Positions 6,501 through 34,674 of a stretch of DNA of 35,565 bases are shown here, piece by piece. Each line of letters opens with the position of its first letter. Position 1 is the first letter of the stretch. The position numbers and the translations under genes were made by a program. Below the pieces are notes generated by a model. The model did no database searches. It had not been told where the DNA came from and was given only the letters and a program-made list of their open reading frames with translations. The stretch spans positions 1 through 35,565 of the IMG/VR virus record IMGVR_UViG_2541047908_000011, one strand, 5' to 3'. Origin of the DNA: a virus (Duplodnaviria; Heunggongvirae; Uroviricota; Caudoviricetes).

Positions 6501-6796
6501 CGGGCATTTACTGAATTCCACTCATCGGCGAGAGAAATAAGATGACCGGTAGCAAAAGCTCCGGCAAATGCCCCCGCCATATTCAGTGCCGAAGATTTAG
6601 CTGTATTTATCTGATCCGTCACTTCTGCCAGTGCACGCCGCATTTCACGGGATGCAGCAGCGGACTGCCGGCCTCCGTTCTGCATGGTACGGTAGTAATC
6701 CTGCCCCATACGCGAAGCCCGGGAGATCTCTGACTGGAATGACCGGGAATTTGCCGAGATTTTAATAATCAGTTCACGTAATGTCGCCACACTCAT
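3563..6796 (-). CDS. Tail tape measure protein
   Basis: 1077-aa ORF, Ala/Gln-rich with long predicted coiled-coil stretches, positioned between the G/T chaperone genes and M. Longer than lambda H and different in sequence. Confidence 0.85.
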   Translation of the reverse strand: MSVATLRELIIKISANSRSFQSEISRASRMGQDYYRTMQNGGRQSAAASREMRRALAEVTDQINTAKSSALNMAGAFAGAFATGHLISLADEWNSVNARLKQASQSSDDFQVSQRELMAISQRTGTAFSDNASLFARSAASMREYGYSSEEVLKVTEAISTGLKLSGASTAEASSVITQFSQALAQGVLRGEEFNSVNENGDRVIRALAAGMGVARKDLKAMADNGKLTADKVVPALISQLGALRDEYAAMPDTVSSSATKVENAFMAWVGGANEASGVTKTLTGVLNGVADNIDTVAAAAGALVAVGVARYFGNMASSAGSATAGLITAARNEVALAEAQLRGTQIATARARAAVYRAQQAVVAARGTERQAAAEAKLTAAQASLTRNIAARTAAQTTLNTVTSVGSRLLSGALGLVGGVPGLVMLGATAWYTMYQNQEQARESARQYAATIDEIRQKTSAMSLPEASDNEEKTRQALDEQNRLIDEQKSKIKSLQEKIAGYQYVLANPGWTTDNGFMINHMTSVKTVTEGLAEATNQLAVEQSRLTQMQGKAQSIQDVLAGLEERRVALIRQQAAEQNKAYQSLLIMNGQHTEFNRLLGLGNELLQQRQGLVNVPLRLPQATLDDKQQTALNNSERELALSRLKGEARERARLGYAADDLGFVGEAYQTARQNYINTSLDAWRNNQVNKPKAHKKTEAEKTEDIYKRLIKQQKEQIALAGQNTELAKMKYQVSQGELSTLSEAQKKTLLQNAALIDQKKIREQLAAYESSLADSNASARASDEAQLLGYGEGSRMRERLQEMWSIRQAFEQKNNELLRQYQAGEIEEALWKQEKELNKKYLEERLSDQQDYYAKADALRNNWNAGLQEGLTNWADSATDYASQAADAVVSTMDGLVSNISDALAGNVVDWRNWGSSVLREVSKILMNAAIVNGLKSLSGAGGWLGTVGGWISGAVANAKGGVYTSANLSAYSNTIVDTPTYFAFAKGAGLMGEAGPEAIMPLTRAADGSLGVRAIGNVNGGGGFVYSPVYHISIQNQGSNGEIDARSARGLVDLIDSRVVSIMQSSRRDGGLYSA

Positions 6797-16000: not shown

Positions 16001-16421
16001 GGAACTTCGTTCTCCAGCGATTAAAACGTTTCTCTCTCGGGGATAACATGTATTGCATTCAGTCCCGCCGCCACAGCGTGCTGATTATGTTCATTGACAA
16101 GCTGCATTGTTTCATCAAGCAATTCACGACAGCGATTTGCATTCGTTTCGATGCTCAGCACCAGTGAATGACCCCCACACAACCGCCCATCCAATAAAAA
16201 TGGAGAGTCAGCAGAAACAATTTCCGATTTTATGGGGTCAGTTCAACGGAAGGGCTGCTGTAATGCTGTGGACAATACTCCTTTTGTCGCTTACTGGTTG
16301 AATATCCTGGTTTTTATGCGCTTTATCCATTGTTAAAATACAACCTCAGCCCTCCAGTGATCGGACACTGTGTGAACAATGAATAAGAGCCTTGGCTGAC
16401 GGCTCCGCAAAAGGAATGACA

Positions 16422-16631
16422 ATGACAAGCTTTAATATAAATTTAAATGTAACAACAAAGGTTGAAACCATTTCTGACGTAGCTTTAGAAATTTCCCGTT
16501 TAAAAGTTACGATTGGAATATTATTGGCTAAACTACCTCCAGAACAGCGTGATTCATTCATTGCAGATCTAAAAGGCGTCGGGCTTAATGAAGAGGCCAG
16601 CTTATATAGTAATTTCAACCCAAAGATATAA
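16422..16631 (+). CDS. Small moron protein, unknown function (69 aa)
   Basis: Plus-strand ORF in an AT-rich island, opposite to all neighbouring phage genes. AAGGA RBS 7 nt before ATG 16422; own terminator downstream. Confidence 0.5.
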   Translation: MTSFNINLNVTTKVETISDVALEISRLKVTIGILLAKLPPEQRDSFIADLKGVGLNEEASLYSNFNPKI

Positions 16632-16655
16632 TCTGAATCCATCGTTTACAGGAGC

Positions 16656-16685
16656 GGGGAGGGAGCAACCTCCCCCCTTTTCTTT
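16656..16685 (+). terminator. Rho-independent terminator of the moron gene
   Basis: GGGGAGG-gagcaa-CCTCCCC followed by CTTTTCTTT on the plus strand. Confidence 0.6.
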
Positions 16686-16864
16686 ATCTGGTGTATGTAA
16701 TATTTCCTTTTAAGTAAAACGCTCCCGTATTATCAACTGCGCCCTCAGGTTTTTTATTGAGAATTTTTAATAATTTTGACTTCATAGCAATATTAAAAAT
16801 CTTTGGGAAAAGAAACATATTTCCTCCTGAATAAATATGCGAGGATGAATTGAGTTCACTTTAT

Positions 16865-17050
16865 CTAACCTCGCTGCATACACTGCCGGATGCCATCAAT
16901 CAGTTGGCAGGCCTGAGAAGCAGCGTCAAAAAACTGGCGTGCCTTATCCAGGCTAACGCATCCCGCCAATAAAAAAGGCACCAGTATCGCTACCAGTGCC
17001 CATTTCGCCGCCGTTCGCGGCATTCTGTGTGTCCAGTGTTTTCTGCTCAT
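16865..17050 (-). CDS. Small lipoprotein (lipobox LLAGC) downstream of endolysin; possible o-spanin-like or lysis-associated lipoprotein
   Basis: 61-aa ORF with signal peptide and LLAGC lipobox. AGGTG RBS upstream of ATG 17050. Mature part is short and not Pro-rich, so spanin identity is uncertain. Confidence 0.5.
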   Translation of the reverse strand: MSRKHWTHRMPRTAAKWALVAILVPFLLAGCVSLDKARQFFDAASQACQLIDGIRQCMQRG

Positions 17051-17064
17051 AACACACCTGGTTA

Positions 17065-17448
17065 TCAGCGTTTCAACTGAAAGTGAGGTCCGTCTTTCAG
17101 TGTTTTCCAGTCCCCGCCCCATTCGATGGCAGTTCCCAGCTCTGCGGCAGCCTGCTTAAATGCCTGCGCGATTTTCTCGTACAGAGGCCAGTCCCATGAC
17201 ACCTGGCTGCCAATGTAGGCCACAACATCCACTGCATCACCGGTCAGGTGGCGGCTGTTCATGGTCTGGCTTTTCCCTTCCGCGACCAGCTGTTTCTGGC
17301 GATACTTACTGCGCAGGCCTTCCGTAATACCGAAATCAACCTCCGTCAGCTCCAGCGCACGGCGAGCTACAGCAACCAGCTGTGGTTTAACGCCCTCCAG
17401 ATTCTTTTCGCTGCGACGACTAAATCTGAATTTACCCGACATATTCAC
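17065..17448 (-). CDS. Endolysin, peptidase M15 family (L-alanyl-D-glutamate peptidase-like)
   Basis: 127-aa ORF with His/Asp metal-ligand pattern (SRHLTGDAVDV ... H near C-terminus) typical of small M15 phage endolysins. Sits in the lysis cassette. Confidence 0.75.
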   Translation of the reverse strand: MNMSGKFRFSRRSEKNLEGVKPQLVAVARRALELTEVDFGITEGLRSKYRQKQLVAEGKSQTMNSRHLTGDAVDVVAYIGSQVSWDWPLYEKIAQAFKQAAAELGTAIEWGGDWKTLKDGPHFQLKR

Positions 17449-17449
17449 C

Positions 17450-17719
17450 TCAACAATGGAAAATTTTTGTGACGTTCCCGCGCGCGCGTATCACCAGCAC
17501 GCAGAACAGCAGATTAAAAAACACTTCCAGCCAGCCCGTTGCTAACGGGCGACCACACAGATAGCTGAGGGGCGCAAAGGCATACAACAGCATCAGCAGC
17601 CAGGCCAGCCATGACATCAATGGTTTGTGTCTGGAGTCACGACGACGATAAAAAAAGAGCGTCAGCACGATAACCGTGCATAACGCCACATTCAGCAATC
17701 CGGGAAGGTTACTTAACAT
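17450..17719 (-). CDS. Small three-TM membrane protein in the lysis cassette (possible second holin / antiholin)
   Basis: Start at MLSNLPGLLNV...; three hydrophobic segments. Located between holin and endolysin, with overlapping or adjacent coding boundaries. Confidence 0.45.
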   Translation of the reverse strand: MLSNLPGLLNVALCTVIVLTLFFYRRRDSRHKPLMSWLAWLLMLLYAFAPLSYLCGRPLATGWLEVFFNLLFCVLVIRARGNVTKIFHC

Positions 17720-18101
17720 TGCCGCCTCCTCCGCCCCGCAGGCGGGAGAACAGACCGGACACCAGTGATGCAATATCCTGCTGGTGGATGAACGAGAGAA
17801 TCTTCACCGACACCACTGACACCAGCACTGCACACAGTGCGTCGACAGGCGCACCGTCAAACTCTGTATGCTTTACCAGCCAGGATGCCAGAACCTCTGC
17901 ACCCAGCACACCGATAATAAACGACACAAGAAAATGCGCCGCCACACGCCAGGCTGAAAGCGCCTGCGGCATTGTTGCCACAAACAACGCTCCCGCAAAC
18001 GCACCAAACACAATCCCGAAATCCGTTCCGGTAAACAGCCCGAATACCGTCGCCCCACCGAGCGCCGCAGCCGTGCCGGAACCGGATAAGGGTTCAGACA
18101 T
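17709..18101 (-). CDS. Putative holin (Gly-rich multi-TM membrane protein)
   Basis: Start at MSEPLSGSG... (ATG 18101) with AGGAGA RBS. Several Gly/Ala-rich hydrophobic helices. First gene of the lysis cassette. Confidence 0.55.
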   Translation of the reverse strand: MSEPLSGSGTAAALGGATVFGLFTGTDFGIVFGAFAGALFVATMPQALSAWRVAAHFLVSFIIGVLGAEVLASWLVKHTEFDGAPVDALCAVLVSVVSVKILSFIHQQDIASLVSGLFSRLRGGGGGNVK

Positions 18102-18118
18102 ACTTTTTTCTCCTGTAA

Positions 18119-18150
18119 ATAAAAAAGGGCCACCAGCGGCCCGTAAAAAA
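18119..18150 (-). terminator. Terminator-like hairpin (GGGCC-N6-GGCCC flanked by A/T runs) between the cargo cassette and the holin
   Basis: Plus strand reads AAAAAAGGGCCACCAGCGGCCCGTAAAAAA. On the minus strand the hairpin is followed by a U-run, then the holin RBS. Confidence 0.5.
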
Positions 18151-18392
18151 CACCCCGTCAAAGACACCCGCAGATGCCTTTTGTGTGGTGTTATCTGATG
18201 CGATGTACGCCGGACGTGGCGCGGATATGAAAAAGGCCCGCCGTAGCGAGCCATAAAGAAACAAAATTCTGAATAAAAAAACCGCCTAGTACGGCGGATA
18301 AAATGATCAAAAGAACCCGTTATTCGTTATAATAAATAAAAAACCATCAACATGGCGACTCGACTCAAGAAACGAATTTACTAACTTAAATG

Positions 18393-18902
18393 TTATTTGC
18401 GTTTATTGACAGGTAATATAGAATTAGCAGCATCTTTCTCTCTCTCTTGGAACGAGTTATGTCTTTTAACCATATCAGGACCAATGAGACTATAAATTAC
18501 TGTCAACAGTTGCCATAAAGTTAAAAAAACCAAAATGGCATATGACGCGCCCCTAAAAATGTCCTTGTGATCTATAAAAAACGGTATCTGTTTTACTAAT
18601 GGCGCAACAACGCCAATAATTAAAACTGATGCTAAAATAGCAGTAGAATGTACAATTGGTGTAAATAACCTTGTAATCCCACTGCCATTAGATTCACTCG
18701 CTGAACTGCCACCTCTAAATGATTTTTTTAATCGTTCAGGATAGATTATCGCAAACCAAGCTCCCACAACTGCAAAGATAATGGATGCTGTAGTTCGCAG
18801 GGCCTCATAAAGAGGCCACTGGGATGAGAAGGGAACATTCTTCCCAAAATAGGCAGAAAAAATCAGAACGACCATAAGAAAAATTCCACCTAAGATTTTC
18901 AT
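18393..18902 (-). CDS. Cargo gene B: 169-aa integral membrane protein (about four TM helices), unknown function
   Basis: AT-rich ORF. Hydrophobic segments at about residues 5-22, 38-57, 85-106 and 120-141. Its ATG directly abuts the stop of cargo gene A (GGA ATG TAG ATG AAA). Confidence 0.7.
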   Translation of the reverse strand: MKILGGIFLMVVLIFSAYFGKNVPFSSQWPLYEALRTTASIIFAVVGAWFAIIYPERLKKSFRGGSSASESNGSGITRLFTPIVHSTAILASVLIIGVVAPLVKQIPFFIDHKDIFRGASYAILVFLTLWQLLTVIYSLIGPDMVKRHNSFQEREKDAANSILPVNKRK

Positions 18903-19943
18903 CTACATTCCCGCCTCGCGTAATATGAGCTCCCTTTTGCCTACAAGTTCAGAAAGAAGAGATTCCGAGGACACAAACTCGGCGTCCTGTCGCTCCAAAT
19001 TCAAGTGGAATTTGGTTCGTGCTAATGAACGACTGAGCCAATATGTCGTTGGATCTCCTTTAAATACAAAACCATAATCACAAGAGTTTGTATCGCTATG
19101 TTTATTCCAATCATCAATCATCCCCTCGATGTCATCAATATCAACATTCGGAGAAAGTTCATATCTAATTTTTGTTGAGGTATTTGCAGTTTGTGGATGG
19201 CTAATATTCATATTAATCAATAGTTTTTGCCACAGGCTAAACTCGTCAGGTTTTGACACATCAAGTTCAACAACCTTTTCAATTTTAGAAACAATATTAG
19301 CATTCTGCCTAATAACTTCATGTTTACCAGGATTTCTTACTAAACCAGCTACGAACTGTGGATAGTGTTTTTTCTTTGGCAGCACATCATCTGTTGGGTT
19401 AATTTTATAGCCCTTGATAACCACCTCATGCGTGCCATCTTCCTTCTCCACACTTTCCGCCACAACGTGGCTTGATGACTGTTTTAAAAAATGATAGAGA
19501 TAGCATTGCATCGCCTTCTGTCCCGTCAAAGCATGGTTAAACTTGATGCTAGCCACTAAATCCATGGATGGAATAAACCAAAAGTAAGTAGCAAAACCAG
19601 GAATACTTCCCTTCTGGATTGAATTAAGTATTACTGTTGGGTCCGTACCAAATTCTGTATCTTCCTGAACCGATGGAACACTTTGATCTGTAGAAGGAAC
19701 CTCATTCCAGAGCAACAAAACCACATTGTCACCAGCACGTTTCATATCCAGAAGATAAGCAGGTAAAACCTCATCATTTGCTTCATATGTCTTTGTCTGT
19801 TTGAGTTTTTTCCCTTCTGCCCATAAAGCAAGATCTGTGAGCAACTCGTCACAACCACCAAATGCAGGGCTTACAACACCGTAACGGTAGTAACCACATT
19901 TTTGAATTTTATAGAACGTAATCGTTACAGTTTCAGAAACCAT
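18903..19943 (-). CDS. Cargo gene A: 346-aa soluble protein of unknown function, translationally coupled to the membrane partner
   Basis: Long AT-rich ORF with no TM segments, no Walker motif and no phage-structural signature that I can recognise. Occupies the Q-to-holin interval. Confidence 0.7.
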   Translation of the reverse strand: MVSETVTITFYKIQKCGYYRYGVVSPAFGGCDELLTDLALWAEGKKLKQTKTYEANDEVLPAYLLDMKRAGDNVVLLLWNEVPSTDQSVPSVQEDTEFGTDPTVILNSIQKGSIPGFATYFWFIPSMDLVASIKFNHALTGQKAMQCYLYHFLKQSSSHVVAESVEKEDGTHEVVIKGYKINPTDDVLPKKKHYPQFVAGLVRNPGKHEVIRQNANIVSKIEKVVELDVSKPDEFSLWQKLLINMNISHPQTANTSTKIRYELSPNVDIDDIEGMIDDWNKHSDTNSCDYGFVFKGDPTTYWLSRSLARTKFHLNLERQDAEFVSSESLLSELVGKRELILREAGM

Positions 19944-20104
19944 AAACTCTTATCCAAATGAAGTAGGGAAGAGTCTAATTTAATACCAATTCATTTAAAG
20001 TGGTTACTGGTTATTTGATCATATTGATAGTGTACAAACATACAGTATCATATCCACATCCTGCATCAAAGCAGGAATCACCTATTGTTAGATACCATAC
20101 ATAC

Positions 20105-20223
20105 TGTTTTTACGATCAACAAAAGCCCACTCGGAGGCGGGCTGTAAAAATTCCTCTAACGTCAGGCATAAAACGCCCATCGTTAGGGCGAATTTAACAC
20201 AGATTCGGGAAAAATCAACGATA
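20105..20223 (-). promoter_or_regulatory. Late promoter / leader region (pR'-like with qut-like leader and tR'-like hairpins)
   Basis: Just downstream of the Q-like stop: TTGATT, 15-16 nt spacer, TTAAAT, then two hairpin-plus-U-run elements (about 20174-20190 and 20120-20143). Matches the lambdoid arrangement by position. Coordinates approximate. Confidence 0.4.
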
Positions 20224-21045
20224 CTATCGCGTTACCCTCTTTAACTGCCGCTCCGCCCATGCCTCTTCAATGTCAAACCGAACCACCAACGTATCGTAAA
20301 AGCGTTTCACTGATTTTTTCCACGTATCAAGCGTGATAGCACTCGTCACTTTGCGTATGGCATTAAATGCCTCCGTTGATGGTAGTCTTTCATAGCCACG
20401 ACCACCACAACGCTGGCAGTCTCTGATAACAGGCATACCACGTTTTACCGACTCTTCACGATGAATGGCGACACCACGCCCACGGCAATCCTTACAGGCG
20501 GTGGAAACCTCACCCTTTCCGCCACACTCCGGACACGCAACTTTTACCACCTCCCTGACTTTTTTCCATTCTTCCCAGTAAGACGGATACACACCTTTCG
20601 TACACTTTGCCCATACCGGCGGCTTACCATCCGGATACTGGACCTTGTTTGTAAAAACTATGCTTTCAATAAATTTTTCCCCATAGCAACAAGGGCACTG
20701 CTTTTTACTCGCTGCGCTGCGGGCATAATCCTCAAAAGCGTACGAAGCCATAATGCGCATCACTACCGGTTTTATTTCTGCCGGAAGTTTTCTCAACGCC
20801 GCCACACGATCGCACCGACTGAGTGCATAATCTGCCAGTAATTCTGTTGCCCGCGCCCTGTCATTCATACTGATGCCCATTTTCCCCAGGAACGCAGAAA
20901 AACCCATCTCAGCCCGATTCTGTGTCATGCCCTGCGCGGCCATCACATCAGTGATACTCAGCGCATCTTTTGACGTTGAGGCCGATGCATCGGTCAGGCC
21001 AGGGGATTTTGGGGAGTAGTATTTCGGTAAATCTTCCAGTTTCAT
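20224..21045 (-). CDS. Antitermination protein Q-like (zinc-finger containing)
   Basis: 273-aa ORF with Cys clusters (CPECGGKG...CKDCRGRG...CQRCGGRG). Position is canonical: after RusA, immediately upstream of the late promoter and lysis genes. Confidence 0.6.
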   Translation of the reverse strand: MKLEDLPKYYSPKSPGLTDASASTSKDALSITDVMAAQGMTQNRAEMGFSAFLGKMGISMNDRARATELLADYALSRCDRVAALRKLPAEIKPVVMRIMASYAFEDYARSAASKKQCPCCYGEKFIESIVFTNKVQYPDGKPPVWAKCTKGVYPSYWEEWKKVREVVKVACPECGGKGEVSTACKDCRGRGVAIHREESVKRGMPVIRDCQRCGGRGYERLPSTEAFNAIRKVTSAITLDTWKKSVKRFYDTLVVRFDIEEAWAERQLKRVTR

Positions 21046-21059
21046 TTTTTGACCTGCTC

Positions 21060-21416
21060 TTAATGCATTATGGGGTAATTCTTCACCCCCAGACGTCCAC
21101 CAGATACTGGCTGACCACGAACGATATTGATTTCATCAAACTGCTCATCGTCCATTAACACTCCCGCATGCGTCAGCGCATCCAGCGGTGCTTTCAGGAT
21201 ATTGTCCAGGTCGCGACGACGCTTATCCGGTGGCTCTGCAATCACCTTTATCGCCAGCCTTCCGGACAGGCTTAATTTCAGCCGCTGCTGGCGAACAATA
21301 AGCGCCACAGCCCGGCGATAACGCTTTCCCTCCTCCGAGATAAAATATGTGCTGCCACGGCGTCGCCAGTAAGTGTTCACCGTCGGCGGGTAAGGTAAAA
21401 CCAAATCTATGAGCAT
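21060..21416 (-). CDS. rusA: Holliday junction resolvase RusA
   Basis: 118-aa ORF with YPPTVNTYWRRRG... and RRRDLDN...DAL...D motifs matching RusA. Confidence 0.85.
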   Translation of the reverse strand: MLIDLVLPYPPTVNTYWRRRGSTYFISEEGKRYRRAVALIVRQQRLKLSLSGRLAIKVIAEPPDKRRRDLDNILKAPLDALTHAGVLMDDEQFDEINIVRGQPVSGGRLGVKNYPIMH

Positions 21417-21428
21417 CAGTCACCTCTT

Positions 21429-22397
21429 TTACCCAAGCACGCCAGTTGCAAAGGCGTGATCAAGAAAACGAAAAATTAAATCAACCTGAGAACCATGCTT
21501 TTCTTCGAACGCCAGAGGATCCGCATGAAGCTCGTTGTGATGCTCCCGACACAGCGGTAGCGTGAAAATATCGTGAGATTTTGTCCCCATTCCGCCCTGA
21601 CCATGACCAATCAGGTGATGGGGATCGTCGGCTGGCTTACCACAACACGCACACGGCTGTGTCTTCACCCAGCGTGTGTATTTCTCGTTAACCCAGCGGC
21701 GACGTTTAGGTCGTTTCATGAAAGATTCCGGAGACTCAGGATCAACGGCAATGCTGACCACCGTCTTTTCCTGTGGTGGGTTCTGTTGCTGGTGGGCGTG
21801 AGGCAGCGGCGCAAGATTTTTTGTGCGCTGTTTCAGTATGCTGGTGGCGGTCTGCTCTCCCGGTACGATGTCGCTTTCACGGTACATTGAGCGGATTTTT
21901 TCCGCACGCAACCCCAGCGAACGACGTAATACCGCTTCCGGTAGCGCGTCCGCCACCTGATTGCGGACCGCCCACCAGGATAATTCAGCCAGAGATAATT
22001 CACGCTCCTGCGTACCGCTTATTGCGTGACCGATGACGTCAATCATCCATGCTGACAGGTTTTGATGAGCAAGTTGCTCGAGTGATTCGGATGTCTGGTC
22101 ACGCAACTGGTTGTCGCAGTGCCAGCACAACACCATTGCGCCGGTACCATAACGGTGAATGACGGTTTCGCTGTGATGATAATCGCCGTGTGGCCACTGG
22201 CAGGATTTAATATGGCGCAACAGCCAGTCAGACAATGCACCAGCAGCACGAATCACCCGTGCGTTACTGAAAAACGGCAGCAATGTTTTGTCTTCCACCA
22301 GCGGCTGGCGAACGGCAGGAACGACCCCGGACGGCAGATTACGCATGCTTTTCGGTTCAGGCTCCACCAGCACTCGAGGGTTATGAAATACTTGCAT
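21429..22397 (-). CDS. DUF968-family phage protein (YdfU-like)
   Basis: C-terminal PCACCGKPADDPHHLIGHGQGG...LPLCREHHNELH motif. Start set at internal ATG 22397; the upstream in-frame start at 22541 would overlap the next gene. Confidence 0.6.
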   Translation of the reverse strand: MQVFHNPRVLVEPEPKSMRNLPSGVVPAVRQPLVEDKTLLPFFSNARVIRAAGALSDWLLRHIKSCQWPHGDYHHSETVIHRYGTGAMVLCWHCDNQLRDQTSESLEQLAHQNLSAWMIDVIGHAISGTQERELSLAELSWWAVRNQVADALPEAVLRRSLGLRAEKIRSMYRESDIVPGEQTATSILKQRTKNLAPLPHAHQQQNPPQEKTVVSIAVDPESPESFMKRPKRRRWVNEKYTRWVKTQPCACCGKPADDPHHLIGHGQGGMGTKSHDIFTLPLCREHHNELHADPLAFEEKHGSQVDLIFRFLDHAFATGVLG

Positions 22398-27114: not shown

Positions 27115-27540
27115 TTAGTGCATCACCACAGCATTCCCTGCCGGGCCGCCGCGATTCATCTGGTCATACAAAACAACCGCTGACGCAACAAAATCATCGA
27201 CATCCTTCACCAGCCGATCCCTCCGTTCGACGATCTCACGGTAATATTCAGAACTGTGGCTGCGCATACGGGCCACCAGCAAAGGTGGCATTGCCTTTTC
27301 GATCGCTGGTAACAACGCCTGAATTTTTTCAACTGCATCAGGGGTGTCTTTCTCTACCCAGCGGAAAATTTTCTGGGTATTGCGAGCCAGGGCTTCCGGA
27401 TGGCTGTCGTCATACAGTTCCGGGAACGTCATTCCCAGCTCGAAATAAGTCCGGGCTATTTCAGCTGCTGGAACTTTCTCACCGTCTGGATACGCCCAGG
27501 CATTCATTGCCATGCGGATGTGTTCATGCTTGATTTTCAT
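27115..27540 (-). CDS. YdaT-like (CII-like) early regulatory protein
   Basis: 141-aa ORF, MKIKHEHIRMAMNAWAYPDGEK..., between the cro-like gene and the O-like gene. Resembles Rac prophage YdaT as I remember it. Confidence 0.55.
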   Translation of the reverse strand: MKIKHEHIRMAMNAWAYPDGEKVPAAEIARTYFELGMTFPELYDDSHPEALARNTQKIFRWVEKDTPDAVEKIQALLPAIEKAMPPLLVARMRSHSSEYYREIVERRDRLVKDVDDFVASAVVLYDQMNRGGPAGNAVVMH

Positions 27541-27796
27541 GAATCAGCTCCGGTGCATTTGATGTGTTAACCTTGAATCCAACAGGTAAACCGTCGGTTG
27601 GGTTAGGATAAATATCAGGGCGAATTTCATGCGGGGTAACTTCCCACTTCATTAGCTGACATAACGGAATTACCTGCTTTGGGGGAACGTCAAAGCTAAA
27701 CCATTGCCAAACAGTCTGTTGAGCGACCCCCATATAACGACCTATTTCAGCTTGAGTGTATTTCTGCCTAATTTTTTCGCGAGTGCTATCTAGCAT
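27524..27796 (-). CDS. Cro-like HTH regulator (YdaS-like)
   Basis: 90-aa ORF with HTH (QAEIGRYMGVAQQTVWQW). GAGGAG RBS. Divergent from the repressor gene. Confidence 0.65.
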   Translation of the reverse strand: MLDSTREKIRQKYTQAEIGRYMGVAQQTVWQWFSFDVPPKQVIPLCQLMKWEVTPHEIRPDIYPNPTDGLPVGFKVNTSNAPELIHENQA

Positions 27797-27830
27797 TTTG
27801 CTCTCCTCTAAAAAACTATAAGCAAAGCCT

Positions 27831-27869
27831 ACAATAAAAAACTGTACACAATCAACAGTTTTTTATTGT
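27831..27869. promoter_or_regulatory. Operator-like perfect palindrome in the divergent repressor/cro-like intergenic region
   Basis: ACAATAAAAAACTGT, 9-nt spacer, ACAGTTTTTTATTGT: perfect 15-bp arms. Confidence 0.55.
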
Positions 27870-27905
27870 GATGCTTTTAACAGTATTTACCTGTAAAATT
27901 GAATA

Positions 27906-28307
27906 ATGATGAACGCCCTAGAAGTATCTATGTACAGAATCAGCAAGCTTCTTCAGGAAACTGGATGGAGCCAGGCTGAGCTTGCCCGTAGAATTGGTGT
28001 GACACAACAAACTGTTCAACAATGGGTCAGCGGTAAGGCTACACCTAAAGCCTCAAGTTTGGATAAACTGGTTGAGGTTACAGGGCATCCATTGCATTGG
28101 TTTTTATTGCCTCCTGAAGAGGGGGAGCAAATTTTCACCCCTGACACGATGAAAATTGGTCCTCGTCAACGCGAACTGCTCCAGGCTTTTAGTGCGTTTC
28201 CAGAGGAAGACCAAGAAAAAATGCTTCAAGAAATCAAAGACAAGAAAAAATCAATGGAAGAAACCATTGCCCGGTGGTTGGCGGCACAAAAAAGCCGCCG
28301 GGCGTGA
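27906..28307 (+). CDS. Prophage repressor-like HTH (XRE-family) regulator, PaaR-like; first gene of a three-gene operon with a ParE-type TA pair
   Basis: 133-aa ORF with HTH (WSQAELARRIGVTQQTVQQWVSG) and no S24 peptidase domain. Divergent from the cro-like gene. Confidence 0.65.
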   Translation: MMNALEVSMYRISKLLQETGWSQAELARRIGVTQQTVQQWVSGKATPKASSLDKLVEVTGHPLHWFLLPPEEGEQIFTPDTMKIGPRQRELLQAFSAFPEEDQEKMLQEIKDKKKSMEETIARWLAAQKSRRA

Positions 28308-28334
28308 CCACAGTACAAGAAGAGGAGTTATGCC

Positions 28335-28526
28335 ATGAGTACAGCCCTTTCTCCGATAGTTTCAGAATTCGAAACTACCGAACAAGAAAACAGTTACAAC
28401 GAATGGTTACGCGCTAAAGTGGCGTCAAGCCTTGCAGACCCTCGTCCCTCAATTCCACATGATGAGGTAATGGCTGAAATGGAGAATCTTATTGCTCAAA
28501 TTGCTGTAACTAACAGGAGCGAGTAA
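28335..28526 (+). CDS. Antitoxin (PaaA-like, 63 aa) of a ParE-family toxin
   Basis: 63-aa acidic ORF overlapping the toxin start by 1 nt (ATGA-type coupling). Confidence 0.6.
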   Translation: MSTALSPIVSEFETTEQENSYNEWLRAKVASSLADPRPSIPHDEVMAEMENLIAQIAVTNRSE

Positions 28527-28813
28527 TGTTACCCATTTTGTGGCTACCATCTGCTCGCGATGATTTGCGTCAGATCGTAGCCTATATTGCTAAGGAAAAT
28601 ATTCCTGCAGCACGCAGACTAAAAATACGGATTGAAACGTCTGTTTTAGCCCTCTCTGAGCATCCATATCTATATCCGCCAAGTGATCGAGTATCCGGTT
28701 TGCGGGAAATTGTGGTTCACCCTAATTATATCGTTTTGTACCGAGTAGCAACTTCAAGCATTGAAATTGCAAATATTGTGCATGCCCGCCGACAATTTCC
28801 CTTCCCTATCTGA
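28526..28813 (+). CDS. parE: RelE/ParE-family type II toxin
   Basis: 95-aa ORF, MLPILWLPSARDDLRQIVAYIA..., typical ParE N-terminus and size. Coupled to the upstream small antitoxin gene. Confidence 0.7.
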   Translation: MLPILWLPSARDDLRQIVAYIAKENIPAARRLKIRIETSVLALSEHPYLYPPSDRVSGLREIVVHPNYIVLYRVATSSIEIANIVHARRQFPFPI

Positions 28814-33303: not shown

Positions 33304-33507
33304 ATGAGCAGCTTATTTTTAACCGAAGATGAATTGCTAATATTAACGGGCTGCAAATATGCAAGCCACCAGCGAAAATGGTTAATGGAAAACGGGCTTC
33401 CGTTCTATACCAATCGTAGTGGCAAACCGATTGTCAGCCGGGATCTATTTACCTGCAATAAAACTTTACCACCACGCGAGGTAGAGCCGAATTTTGGTGC
33501 GATCTGA
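33304..33507 (+). CDS. Excisionase-like protein
   Basis: 67-aa ORF immediately upstream of int, with its stop overlapping the int start. Confidence 0.6.
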   Translation: MSSLFLTEDELLILTGCKYASHQRKWLMENGLPFYTNRSGKPIVSRDLFTCNKTLPPREVEPNFGAI

Positions 33508-34532
33508 TGGGAAGACGAAGGAAAAATCCTGAACACGAAAAATTACCTCCAAATGTATACCCAAATAAATATAGTTATGTATGGAAACCAACATCCAGAG
33601 AATCTGTCACACTAACCGCCATCAAGGATGGTTTAGCTGCTTTATGGAAAAAGTATGAGGAAACTGTAAATAATCGCGATCGTGCAATGACATTCGGTCG
33701 CTTGTGGGAAAAATTCCTCGCCAGCGCCTATTACAGTGACCTTAGTCCAAGAACACAAAAAGATTATCTGCAACATCAAAAAAAGTTGCTTGCCGTATTC
33801 GGTAAGGTACCAGCGGATTCCATAAAACCAGAACACATCCGTCGATACATGGACAAAAGAGGGGAGCAGAGTAAAACGCAAGCCAACCATGAAAAAAGCA
33901 GTATGTCCCGTGTTTACAGTTGGGGGTATGAGCGAGGGTACGTGAAGGCTAACCCATGTGCAGGTGTAAGTAAATTCAAGGCCAAAAACCGCGAACGATA
34001 TGTAACCGACAAAGAATACCAGGCAGTATTAAGCGTTGCACCTCTTCCTGTTTTTATCGCAATGGAAATTGCCTATCTGTGTGCAGCGAGGGTTTCCGAT
34101 GTGTTATCGCTGAAATGGGAACAGATTGGAAACGACGGGATATTCATCCAGCAAGGGAAAACCGGAAAAAAACAGATAAAAGCATGGAGTCCACGATTAC
34201 AGGCAGCGATCGAAAAAGCAAAACAGTTACCAAAATCTGCCTATGTGATCAGCAATCAATACGGCAACCGATATATGTACAAAGGCTTTAACGAAATGTG
34301 GGTAGATGCAAGAAATCGTGCTGGAAAAATTTCAGGTATTTTAACCGACTTCACCTTTCATGATCTGAAGGCGAAAGGAATTTCAGACTATGAAGGAAGC
34401 AGCCGGGATAAGCAACTTTTCTCTGGTCACAAAACCGAAGGGCAAGTGCTAATCTATGACAGGAAGGTTAAAGTTTCACCAACACTTGATGTCCCGTTAC
34501 CTGAAAATATTCCAAGAAAATATTCCAAGTAA
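33507..34532 (+). CDS. int: Tyrosine integrase (lambda Int family)
   Basis: 341-aa ORF with a C-terminal catalytic region (FHDLKA...GH...LIYDRK) consistent with the R-H-R-Y active site. Adjacent to the tRNA 3' end. Confidence 0.9.
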   Translation: MGRRRKNPEHEKLPPNVYPNKYSYVWKPTSRESVTLTAIKDGLAALWKKYEETVNNRDRAMTFGRLWEKFLASAYYSDLSPRTQKDYLQHQKKLLAVFGKVPADSIKPEHIRRYMDKRGEQSKTQANHEKSSMSRVYSWGYERGYVKANPCAGVSKFKAKNRERYVTDKEYQAVLSVAPLPVFIAMEIAYLCAARVSDVLSLKWEQIGNDGIFIQQGKTGKKQIKAWSPRLQAAIEKAKQLPKSAYVISNQYGNRYMYKGFNEMWVDARNRAGKISGILTDFTFHDLKAKGISDYEGSSRDKQLFSGHKTEGQVLIYDRKVKVSPTLDVPLPENIPRKYSK

Positions 34533-34584: not shown

Positions 34585-34674
34585 TGGCGGAGAGAGGGGG
34601 ATTTGAACCCCCGGTGGAGTTGCCCCCACTCCGGTTTTCGAGACCGGTCCGTTCAGCCGCTCCGGCATCTCTCC
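34585..34674 (-). tRNA. serU: tRNA-Ser (anticodon CGA)
   Basis: Minus strand reads GGAGAGATGCCGGAGCGGCTGAACGGACCGGTCTCGAAAACCGGAGTGGGGGCAACTCCACCGGGGGTTCAAATCCCCCTCTCTCCGCCA: 90 nt with long variable arm and CCA end; anticodon loop CU-CGA-AA. Confidence 0.9.

Follow-up and report, generated by a model that had tools for sequence, protein, structure and literature searches.

The window analysed here is the whole 35,565-nucleotide (nt) stretch of the tailed-phage record IMGVR_UViG_2541047908_000011, and our subject within it is the late leader between the gene for the antiterminator Q and the holin gene, where two additional genes, a copy of the candidate system PDC-M18, are lodged as cargo. 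The window is a serU-integrated lambdoid prophage of Escherichia coli, and complete E. coli genomes contain near-identical DNA. Positions follow the numbering of the window, and the genes and elements of the late leader all lie on the minus strand (Table 1). The guanine-plus-cytosine (GC) content of the cargo block is 33–41%, compared with about 53% in its flanks, and a mechanical scan for hairpins followed by U-runs found eight terminator-like sites in 17900–20500, against 2.6 ± 1.8 in shuffled sequence. A cargo slot between Q and the lysis genes that is bounded by terminators is ordinary lambdoid organization and already known; in relatives the slot is filled by tRNAs, a methylase or stx2e, and the loci L001, L028, and L064 agree with the window in their Q leader, their holin or both, whereas their slots have different contents or none. 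The reading that we favor, and hold with moderate confidence, is that of a Q-dependent late leader housing a mobile two-gene cargo, which would be served both by a LexA-controlled promoter of its own and by Q read-through.

Table 1. Features of the late leader, its neighbors and the integrase end of the window (window numbering; folding energies and z-scores where calculated).
Feature	Position	Strand	Remarks
DUF968 gene	22541-21429	minus	
RusA	21416-21060	minus	
Q antiterminator gene	21045-20224	minus	273 amino acids (aa); Pfam PF03589, two matches, E 4e-52
Intergenic leader	Q to first cargo open reading frame (ORF)		280 nt
Late promoter P_R'	20218-20191	minus	-35 TTGATT 20218-20213; 16-nt spacer; -10 TAAATT 20196-20191
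Hairpin A	20190-20174	minus	CGCCC-N7-GGGCG + UUUU; -9.9 kcal/mol, z -2.7
Putative sigma70-dependent pause element and discriminator-like triplet	AACGAT 20184-20179; GGG 20178-20176	minus	identical to lambda pR' +1 to +9
Predicted terminator tR' (hairpin B)	stem 20143-20124; U-run UUUUGUU 20123-20117	minus	AGCCCGC-N6-GUGGGCU; -11.7 kcal/mol, z -2.4
Candidate cargo promoter region	20069-20028	minus	-35 TTGATG 20069-20064; N16; -10 TACTGT 20047-20042
Putative LexA box	20047-20028	minus	TACTGTATGTTTGTACACTA; core CTGT-N8-ACAC 20045-20030, overlapping the -10; one mismatch, in the second half-site
Second LexA-like box position	20022-20007	minus	ATGATCAAATAACCAG; degenerate in the window
Cargo gene A (PDC-M18A)	19943-18903	minus	346 aa; PADLOC E 4.6e-197; AT-rich; RexA/RdgC-like fold
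Cargo gene B (PDC-M18B)	18902-18393	minus	169 aa; PADLOC E 3.4e-75; AT-rich; membrane protein
Spacer	second cargo ORF to holin		291 nt
Predicted terminator C	18297-18275 (stem 18297-18282)	minus	CCGCC-N6-GGCGG + U7; -10.0 kcal/mol, z -4.3
Predicted terminator D	18252-18230 (stem 18252-18235)	minus	GGCUCGC-UACG-GCGGGCC + U5; -14.5 kcal/mol, z -4.8
Predicted terminator E	18142-18121 (stem 18142-18127)	minus	GGGCC-N6-GGCCC + U6; -10.8 kcal/mol, z -1.5
Holin, first lysis gene	18101-17709	minus	Pfam PF16931, PF05449 and PF13539 cover the lysis genes; PHROGs lysis families
Second holin-family gene and M15 endolysin	downstream of holin, to 17065	minus	
Integrase	33507-34532		adjoining tRNA-Ser 34585-34674

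The Q protein is a homologue of lambda Q: a phmmer search of the PDB matched lambda Q in 7UBM and 7UBN at E 1e-39, with 4MO1 also matched, and the alignment to lambda Q spans residues 1–113 and 182–273. Lambda is therefore the proper reference for the leader. The residues in between, approximately 114–181, form an insertion of about 68 aa that lambda Q does not have; it carries extra CxxC motifs and a DnaJ-type zinc-finger match, and it stands in place of the zinc-ribbon arm of lambda Q. As in lambda, whose late promoter reads TTGACT-N17-TAAATT, a promoter lies right after Q, the TTGATT hexamer beginning 5 nt past the Q stop codon, and the -10 hexamer is the same as in lambda; the spacer, which occupies the place of the lambda Q-binding element, is of other sequence and measures 16 rather than 17 nt. 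Downstream of the -10 the likeness resumes, the window reading TAAATT-cgccct-AACGATGGG and lambda TAAATT-tgactc-AACGATGGG: after the shared -10, both have a gap of 6 nt, and all nine positions of the pause element agree. In lambda, AACGAT covers +1 to +6, the discriminator-like GGG comes next, and the sigma70-dependent pause falls at +16 (PMC4005639), a pause that Q requires (PMC4005639; PMC9388147). By this analogy, transcription from P_R' would start at 20184. An exact-pattern scan found the promoter core identical in 122 viral stretches of IMG/VR. The TTGATT hexamer is thus where the initial annotation had put it, as part of a TTGATT/TTAAAT pair; the second member of that pair is better drawn as TAAATT, which has a 16-nt spacer and is the lambda -10, than as TTAAAT, which has a 15-nt spacer.

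Hairpin B follows about 40–65 nt from the proposed start, as compared with about 194 nt for tR' in lambda. Covariation tests on hairpins A to E were nonsignificant against shuffles, the sequences being too alike, and the percentage of paired cells together with the pattern of variation was used instead; for hairpin B, 96.5% of cells are paired over 29 distinct leaders. The 122 viral stretches are alike through its stem and U-run and diverge directly after, and annotated phages with the same Q (mEp460 and others) align to the window only as far as 20121. In prophages of Yersinia ruckeri (L127) and Providencia stuartii (L130), a P_R'-like promoter is likewise followed, at the equivalent position, by a strong hairpin with a U-run (-14.1 kcal/mol each) whose sequence is unrelated. 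Because leader homology ends there and because Yersinia and Providencia have these equivalents, hairpin B is tR', a predicted terminator. A P_R' transcript would then stop at 20123–20117 as a leader RNA of about 62–68 nt, analogous to lambda 6S RNA and to the StxS precursor (PMC7547250). The RNA from P_R' to tR' (20184–20117), which consists of a 5′ stem-loop and the terminator hairpin and is conserved in more than 120 phage contigs, could be a constitutive small RNA of the 6S/StxS kind in lysogens. Its 5′ stem-loop, at +1 to +29, is 95% paired with no covariation and is inseparable from DNA-level constraint on the pause and Q-loading region. The heptamer TTTTGTT occurs both at the tR' U-run (20124–20118) and just before terminator D (18266–18260), two points that adjoin in L064; the repeat may be the microhomology of an old deletion or insertion, or coincidence.

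Both cargo ORFs match PADLOC candidate system PDC-M18, and the two genes abut; neither protein belongs to a Pfam or NCBIfam family. PDC-M18 corresponds to “system #4” in the P4-satellite defence hotspot (PMC11754643), and its signature motif was not found in the tested-system tables and supplement of Rousset et al. (PMC9122126), as far as these were available. PDC-M18 is a candidate anti-phage module, for defence or exclusion. Among 5,426 complete E. coli genomes, 33 contain the allele of the window, with identity never below 99.5% and with two different lysis cassettes adjoining; in one of the 33, E. coli CP61_Sichuan (NZ_CP053730.1), the cargo is broken by an IS3-family element. Other Enterobacterales have homologues with 49–83% aa identity, and other Proteobacteria have more distant ones; a single-protein search of genome contigs found no cargo loci, and an alignment-based search recovered them. 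In Yersinia ruckeri and Providencia stuartii the cargo sits between a PF03589 Q gene and the holin, with the order Q, tR', cargo, terminator, holin retained (in the latter, at 6660–6900 of L130, an extra small ORF lies between the cargo and the pre-holin terminator); in Pectobacterium and Symbiopectobacterium it lies downstream of a P4-type primase, and in Edwardsiella prophages downstream of YbcO in the nin region. About 135 nt 5′ of the cargo start codon, including the LexA box, accompany the genes in all Enterobacterales contexts, and no conserved sequence extends past the M18B stop codon across contexts. The mobile unit thus appears to run from about 135 nt upstream of the ATG through the stop codon.

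What travels with the genes is centered on an operator-like palindrome. Every one of the 11 Enterobacterales loci has CTGT-N8-ACAG, as does one Cupriavidus locus, 10 of the 12 cores being perfect; measured from the ATG, it stands at -79 in Providencia and at -96 to -105 in the other 11. About 55 distant family members have no such palindrome at that position. The density of perfect boxes is 0.48 per kb upstream of the cargo as compared with 0.0088 per kb elsewhere in the same loci, and the eight core positions are 97.5% conserved as against 59% in the other 154 upstream columns, with none of 95 equivalent windows equaling them. Since the core is far more conserved than the rest of the upstream region, the box is kept by more than common descent. 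A TTGNNN hexamer stands 16–17 nt upstream of TACTGT in most loci, a geometry that matches E. coli sulA, where TTGATC-N17-TACTGT carries an SOS box starting at the -10; the window copy shares with promoters of the LexA regulon the TTGATx-N16/17-TACTGT arrangement and a 20-nt box running from the -10 hexamer, and differs from them in the core mismatch of its putative box. Its 20-mer agrees with the consensus TACTG(TA)5CAGTA at 16 of 20 positions, as many as in the Pectobacterium copy, and the ten perfect-core orthologues agree at 16–18; the box overlaps either of the two candidate -10 assignments. Second boxes with one mismatch (CTGTT.AAA..ATCAG) are found 25 nt downstream of the first, at -77 to -79, in L127 and L134–L137. 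The cargo's own promoter is therefore probably repressed until SOS and induced by DNA damage rather than constitutive in the lysogen, with perhaps some basal expression from the imperfect box of the window, and PDC-M18 is predicted to be under LexA control wherever it moves in Enterobacterales. The core is mismatched in two of the three copies in the Q–holin slot (E. coli and Yersinia) as compared with none of nine copies in other contexts, which hints at relaxed LexA control once Q read-through exists, the copies being few and non-independent.

Two further observations concern the same region. The block ATTAAATTAG (19984–19975, minus strand), about 35–40 nt before the cargo start codon, is conserved in the Enterobacterales loci and could be a second promoter element or a signal in the 5′ untranslated region. 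The region's best consensus promoter match lies on the plus strand over the LexA palindrome (20024–20051, TTGATA-N16-TATCAT, 10/12); it is probably a mirror effect of the palindrome, and divergent antisense transcription toward Q may occur.

On the far side of the cargo, C is the first strong terminator encountered, and E ends 20 nt ahead of the holin start codon, directly before the ribosome-binding site AGGAG (18114–18110). Phages that lack the cargo nevertheless have this fence. E. coli WB61 has sequence in common with the window from about 18341 on, including C, D, and E; phage SerU-LTIIb has tRNA genes, then C, D, and E and the same holin; phiP27 has stx2e, then E and the same holin; and L028 has the same tR', a C-type terminator, an identical E and the same holin, with a DNA methyltransferase and two tRNA genes in between. 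Because cargo-free phages have them, these three predicted terminators are resident parts of the leader and were not brought by the cargo. In 23 E. coli genomes an EssD-type lysis cassette follows this Q, cargo and C-D-E, homology ending at the U-run of E. In a small sample of 11 distinct variants, D is 100% paired with one compensatory exchange of C-G to U-A, and pairing in E reaches 98%, its stem being invariant while the loop varies; some phages have a different hairpin, in another register, at the place of C, and Yersinia and Providencia have analogous pre-holin terminators of unrelated sequence. In L064, D follows within about 10 nt of tR', an empty-site arrangement seen in this one viral contig; a search of complete E. 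coli genomes at a coverage of at least 80% found none with it. Probably, then, the cargo took the place of tRNA-type contents and did not enter an L064-like site.

The three hairpins with U-runs named in the initial annotation (20190–20174, 20143–20124, and 18142–18127) were all recovered by the mechanical scan, and its picture of a cargo fenced by terminators on both sides is borne out by the same bracket, built of unrelated stems, in the Yersinia and Providencia prophages. Its details needed revision at either end: of two proposed upstream terminators, 20143–20124 is tR' and 20190–20174 spans the start site and is unconserved, and the single hairpin proposed before the holin is real but was accompanied by two that had been missed (18297–18282 and 18252–18235), all of them resident. 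Hairpin F (18357–18343), the only hairpin from the cargo stop to 18341, is weak (z -0.85) and was rejected as a terminator. With a cutoff of E ≤ 1, the sole outcome of an Rfam scan of 17000–21500 was a match to STnc100 on D that stayed below threshold (18.6 bits, gathering threshold 47) and was set aside as generic terminator resemblance. The D–E interval (18215–18150, minus strand) contains more stem-loops without U-runs, such as GCGCC..GGCGU and AAAGGCA..UGUCUUU; some related phages have different sequences there that are likewise able to pair, and the interval may be a structured leader before the holin.

Sequence features, homologies, conservation and mosaic boundaries are the ground on which the following scheme is built; the promoter activities, start sites, LexA binding, termination efficiencies, Q read-through and cargo function that figure in it are predicted from them and from analogy. 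In lambdoid phages P_R' is constitutive and terminated at tR', and Q read-through is processive (PMC9388147; PMC7547250). Here P_R' would likewise fire constitutively, with polymerase pausing at the sigma70-dependent AACGAT-GGG, and without Q it would terminate at tR' and release an RNA of about 65 nt. In the unstressed lysogen LexA would hold the weak sigma70 promoter of the cargo low, and RecA*-triggered cleavage of LexA would open it. Transcripts from the cargo promoter, and any read-through of tR', would be halted at C, D, and E, and since these would stop cargo transcripts, the cargo could be expressed during SOS without expression of the lysis genes. On induction, Q-modified polymerase from P_R' would pass tR', C, D, and E, and cargo, lysis and structural genes would be transcribed together. 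The cargo would thereby receive two inputs, both ultimately linked to DNA damage, one fast and LexA-dependent, the other later and Q-dependent.

Dual control by an own promoter and by Q read-through, as proposed in the initial annotation, is on this evidence plausible. Its placement of the cargo within a Q-dependent late unit of the lambda type agrees with the Q homologue, the P_R' with its pause element and tR'. The AT-rich upstream region from which the cargo was to be expressed is real in composition, within the 33–41% GC block, and reveals no promoter to a scan alone; expression from it is plausible as far as an own promoter region goes, whereas expression in the lysogen runs counter to the conserved LexA operator, which predicts repression until SOS. 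The comparison that it drew with stx is apt, P_R' being constitutive and stopped at tR' there too, and stx1 having its own Fur-repressed promoter, Pstx1, besides P_R'/Q read-through (PMC7547250). In both cases a cargo operon stands between tR' and the lysis genes within a Q-antiterminated transcript and has a repressor-controlled promoter of its own, a predicted one in the window. The differences are that the predicted repressor is LexA rather than Fur, so that both inputs would respond to DNA damage, that the cargo is no toxin but a candidate pair for exclusion or defence, and that the arrangement is known here from sequence alone. Relative to the lambda Q cassette, with its homologous Q, its promoter and pause element, a downstream intrinsic terminator (here predicted) and then the lysis genes, the window adds the cargo and the three terminators ahead of the holin.

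Several points weigh against the scheme. The window box has C for the conserved G of the CAG half-site, its second box is degenerate, and control by LexA could accordingly be weak here; on their own, boxes with one mismatch are about as frequent in the window as chance predicts (18 as compared with 11 ± 3.5). A sigma-70 consensus scan of the coding strand from 20120 to 19944 gave no match of 9/12 or better, the cargo promoter hexamers fitting at 7–8/12 in two alternative assignments. The start at 20184 is based on the lambda analogy, the overly similar sequences left covariation for B, D, and E nonsignificant, and E taken alone has a modest z-score (-1.5). It is possible, therefore, to suppose that the LexA operator is crippled by its ACAC half-site and the loss of the second box, and that the own promoter is effectively constitutive in the lysogen, making PDC-M18 a defence or lysogenic-conversion moron that Q boosts further on induction. 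The mismatch at a highly conserved operator position, its concentration in the Q-slot copies, and the activity of P4-hotspot defence systems from native promoters without induction (PMC9122126) all speak for this supposition. Yet the 20-mer has kept as much of the consensus as the Pectobacterium copy, and an allele at least 99.5% identical in 33 genomes gives no sign of ongoing decay. LexA often still binds one intact half-site plus flanks, and the half-site and flanks that remain here may suffice; we consider a constitutive promoter unlikely, while taking it seriously. It is more improbable still that the cargo has no working promoter here and is a late gene transcribed through Q read-through from P_R' only, the box being a relic of earlier homes. 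The weak hexamers and the failure of the consensus scan would fit, as would the sense orientation within the late operon in three genera, but the box and its TTGNNN hexamer are the best-conserved upstream part in all contexts, Q-slot copies included, and the P4-like and nin contexts offer no Q-dependent leader to drive the module.

The hairpins, too, admit other roles. That C, D, and E are chiefly module boundaries for recombination, or else stabilizers or processing sites at 3′ ends of late mRNA, agrees with homology breakpoints at the U-runs of B and E and with the additional stem-loops between D and E; against this, their stems are canonical and GC-rich, with five to seven U directly after, on the coding strand only and in a number above that of shuffles, and terminators of unrelated sequence precede the holin in Yersinia and Providencia. 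We therefore give this possibility little credence as the chief function, the roles not being mutually exclusive. As to hairpin A, its stable fold and the UUUU that follows could suggest a true first terminator or attenuator in tandem with B, a notion that we consider highly improbable. The proposed start at 20184 lies inside the hairpin, the left arm (20190–20186) being upstream of it, and a nascent RNA of 15 nt cannot form a terminator hairpin outside polymerase; the right arm is the conserved AACGAT-GGGCG of the pause and discriminator region, while the left arm varies without compensation. Only 82.8% of its cells are paired, 13 of the 29 distinct leaders lack the closing pair and 7 a different one, with no two-sided change, and the leader comparison found no counterpart in Yersinia and Providencia. 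Hairpin A was accordingly rejected as a terminator and would be a chance occurrence or a DNA-level palindrome across the start site. The Q-dependent leader with a LexA-controlled cargo promoter remains the reading that we prefer.

What the cargo might do is suggested by structure. Gene A has a RexA/RdgC-type fold (top Foldseek-PDB match RdgC, E 0.047), and the hydropathy profile of gene B, with four hydrophobic segments (1–25, 35–55, 88–106, and 122–140), is comparable to that of lambda RexB. In this PDC-M18 resembles lambda RexAB and RexAB-type exclusion systems (PMC11077077; PMC12894663), in which a RexA/RdgC-type fold likewise comes with a small multi-pass membrane partner encoded directly downstream. 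It differs from them in being mobile, in its LexA box and late-leader location, in not lying beside or being co-transcribed with CI, and in lacking detectable sequence homology: hhalign of the gene A family alignment with lambda RexA gave a probability of 0.4%, no Pfam RexA match was found, and BLASTP found no similarity between gene B and RexB. It counts against a Rex-like interpretation that the fold is its support, with the hhalign and RdgC values as given; the architecture is like that of a Rex-type pair, membership in RexAB not being established and homology being unsupported by sequence. No PDC-M18 stood beside a CI-type repressor among the Q-slot, P4-like, nin and other island contexts examined, and the Pseudomonas family members do not adjoin CI-like repressors and so provide no bridge to the validated RexAB-type system of P. 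putida. The searched literature held no precedent for the RexA-like fold of this pair combined with a travelling LexA operator. A speculative and rather doubtful extension would count PDC-M18 among distant RexAB-type pairs, with SOS as its ancestral control in Enterobacterales. Licensed by LexA cleavage, it would exclude competing, co-induced or superinfecting phages or, in the manner of RexA, favor the lytic switch; in the Q-slot copies, late expression would come from Q read-through and the LexA operator would begin to decay. If true, it would be the first Rex-like system with damage-inducible instead of repressor-coupled control, acting as resident prophages and satellites are co-induced.

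As a mobile insertion the cargo also resembles the morons of lambdoid phages, a concept reportedly due to Hendrix and Juhala: its genes are extra and deviant in GC, present or absent among relatives, inserted amid conserved genes, and equipped with a candidate promoter region of their own. No terminator travels with PDC-M18, in contrast to morons, and the resident leader terminators serve instead. What the analysis provides is a checkable anatomy of the slot for a family of E. coli prophages that is widespread, with tR', the start and pause site and the three insulators of the lysis genes assigned, and a first functional handle on an uncharacterized candidate defence system. Should the LexA prediction be true, it would tie a Rex-like exclusion module to the SOS response and offer a simple system in which to ask why defence or exclusion is timed to DNA damage and prophage induction.

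Elsewhere in the window, no perfect LexA box was found over its whole length, and hence no LexA-controlled antirepressor was identified. The immunity region (27115–28813) encodes a 133-aa helix-turn-helix repressor that lacks the S24 peptidase domain for self-cleavage; it also has YdaS- and YdaT-like genes of the Rac/CP-933P type and a gene for a ParE-family toxin (28526–28813). A second AT-rich patch, of GC 0.37–0.41, at 16200–16900 separates the lysis genes from the HNH and terminase genes; its 98-aa ORF (16346–16642) has no family match, and the patch may represent a further insertion. A homologue of QueH, the epoxyqueuosine reductase (23990–23304, minus strand), which is encoded ahead of DUF968, RusA, and Q in the nin-like region, is a probable further cargo gene.

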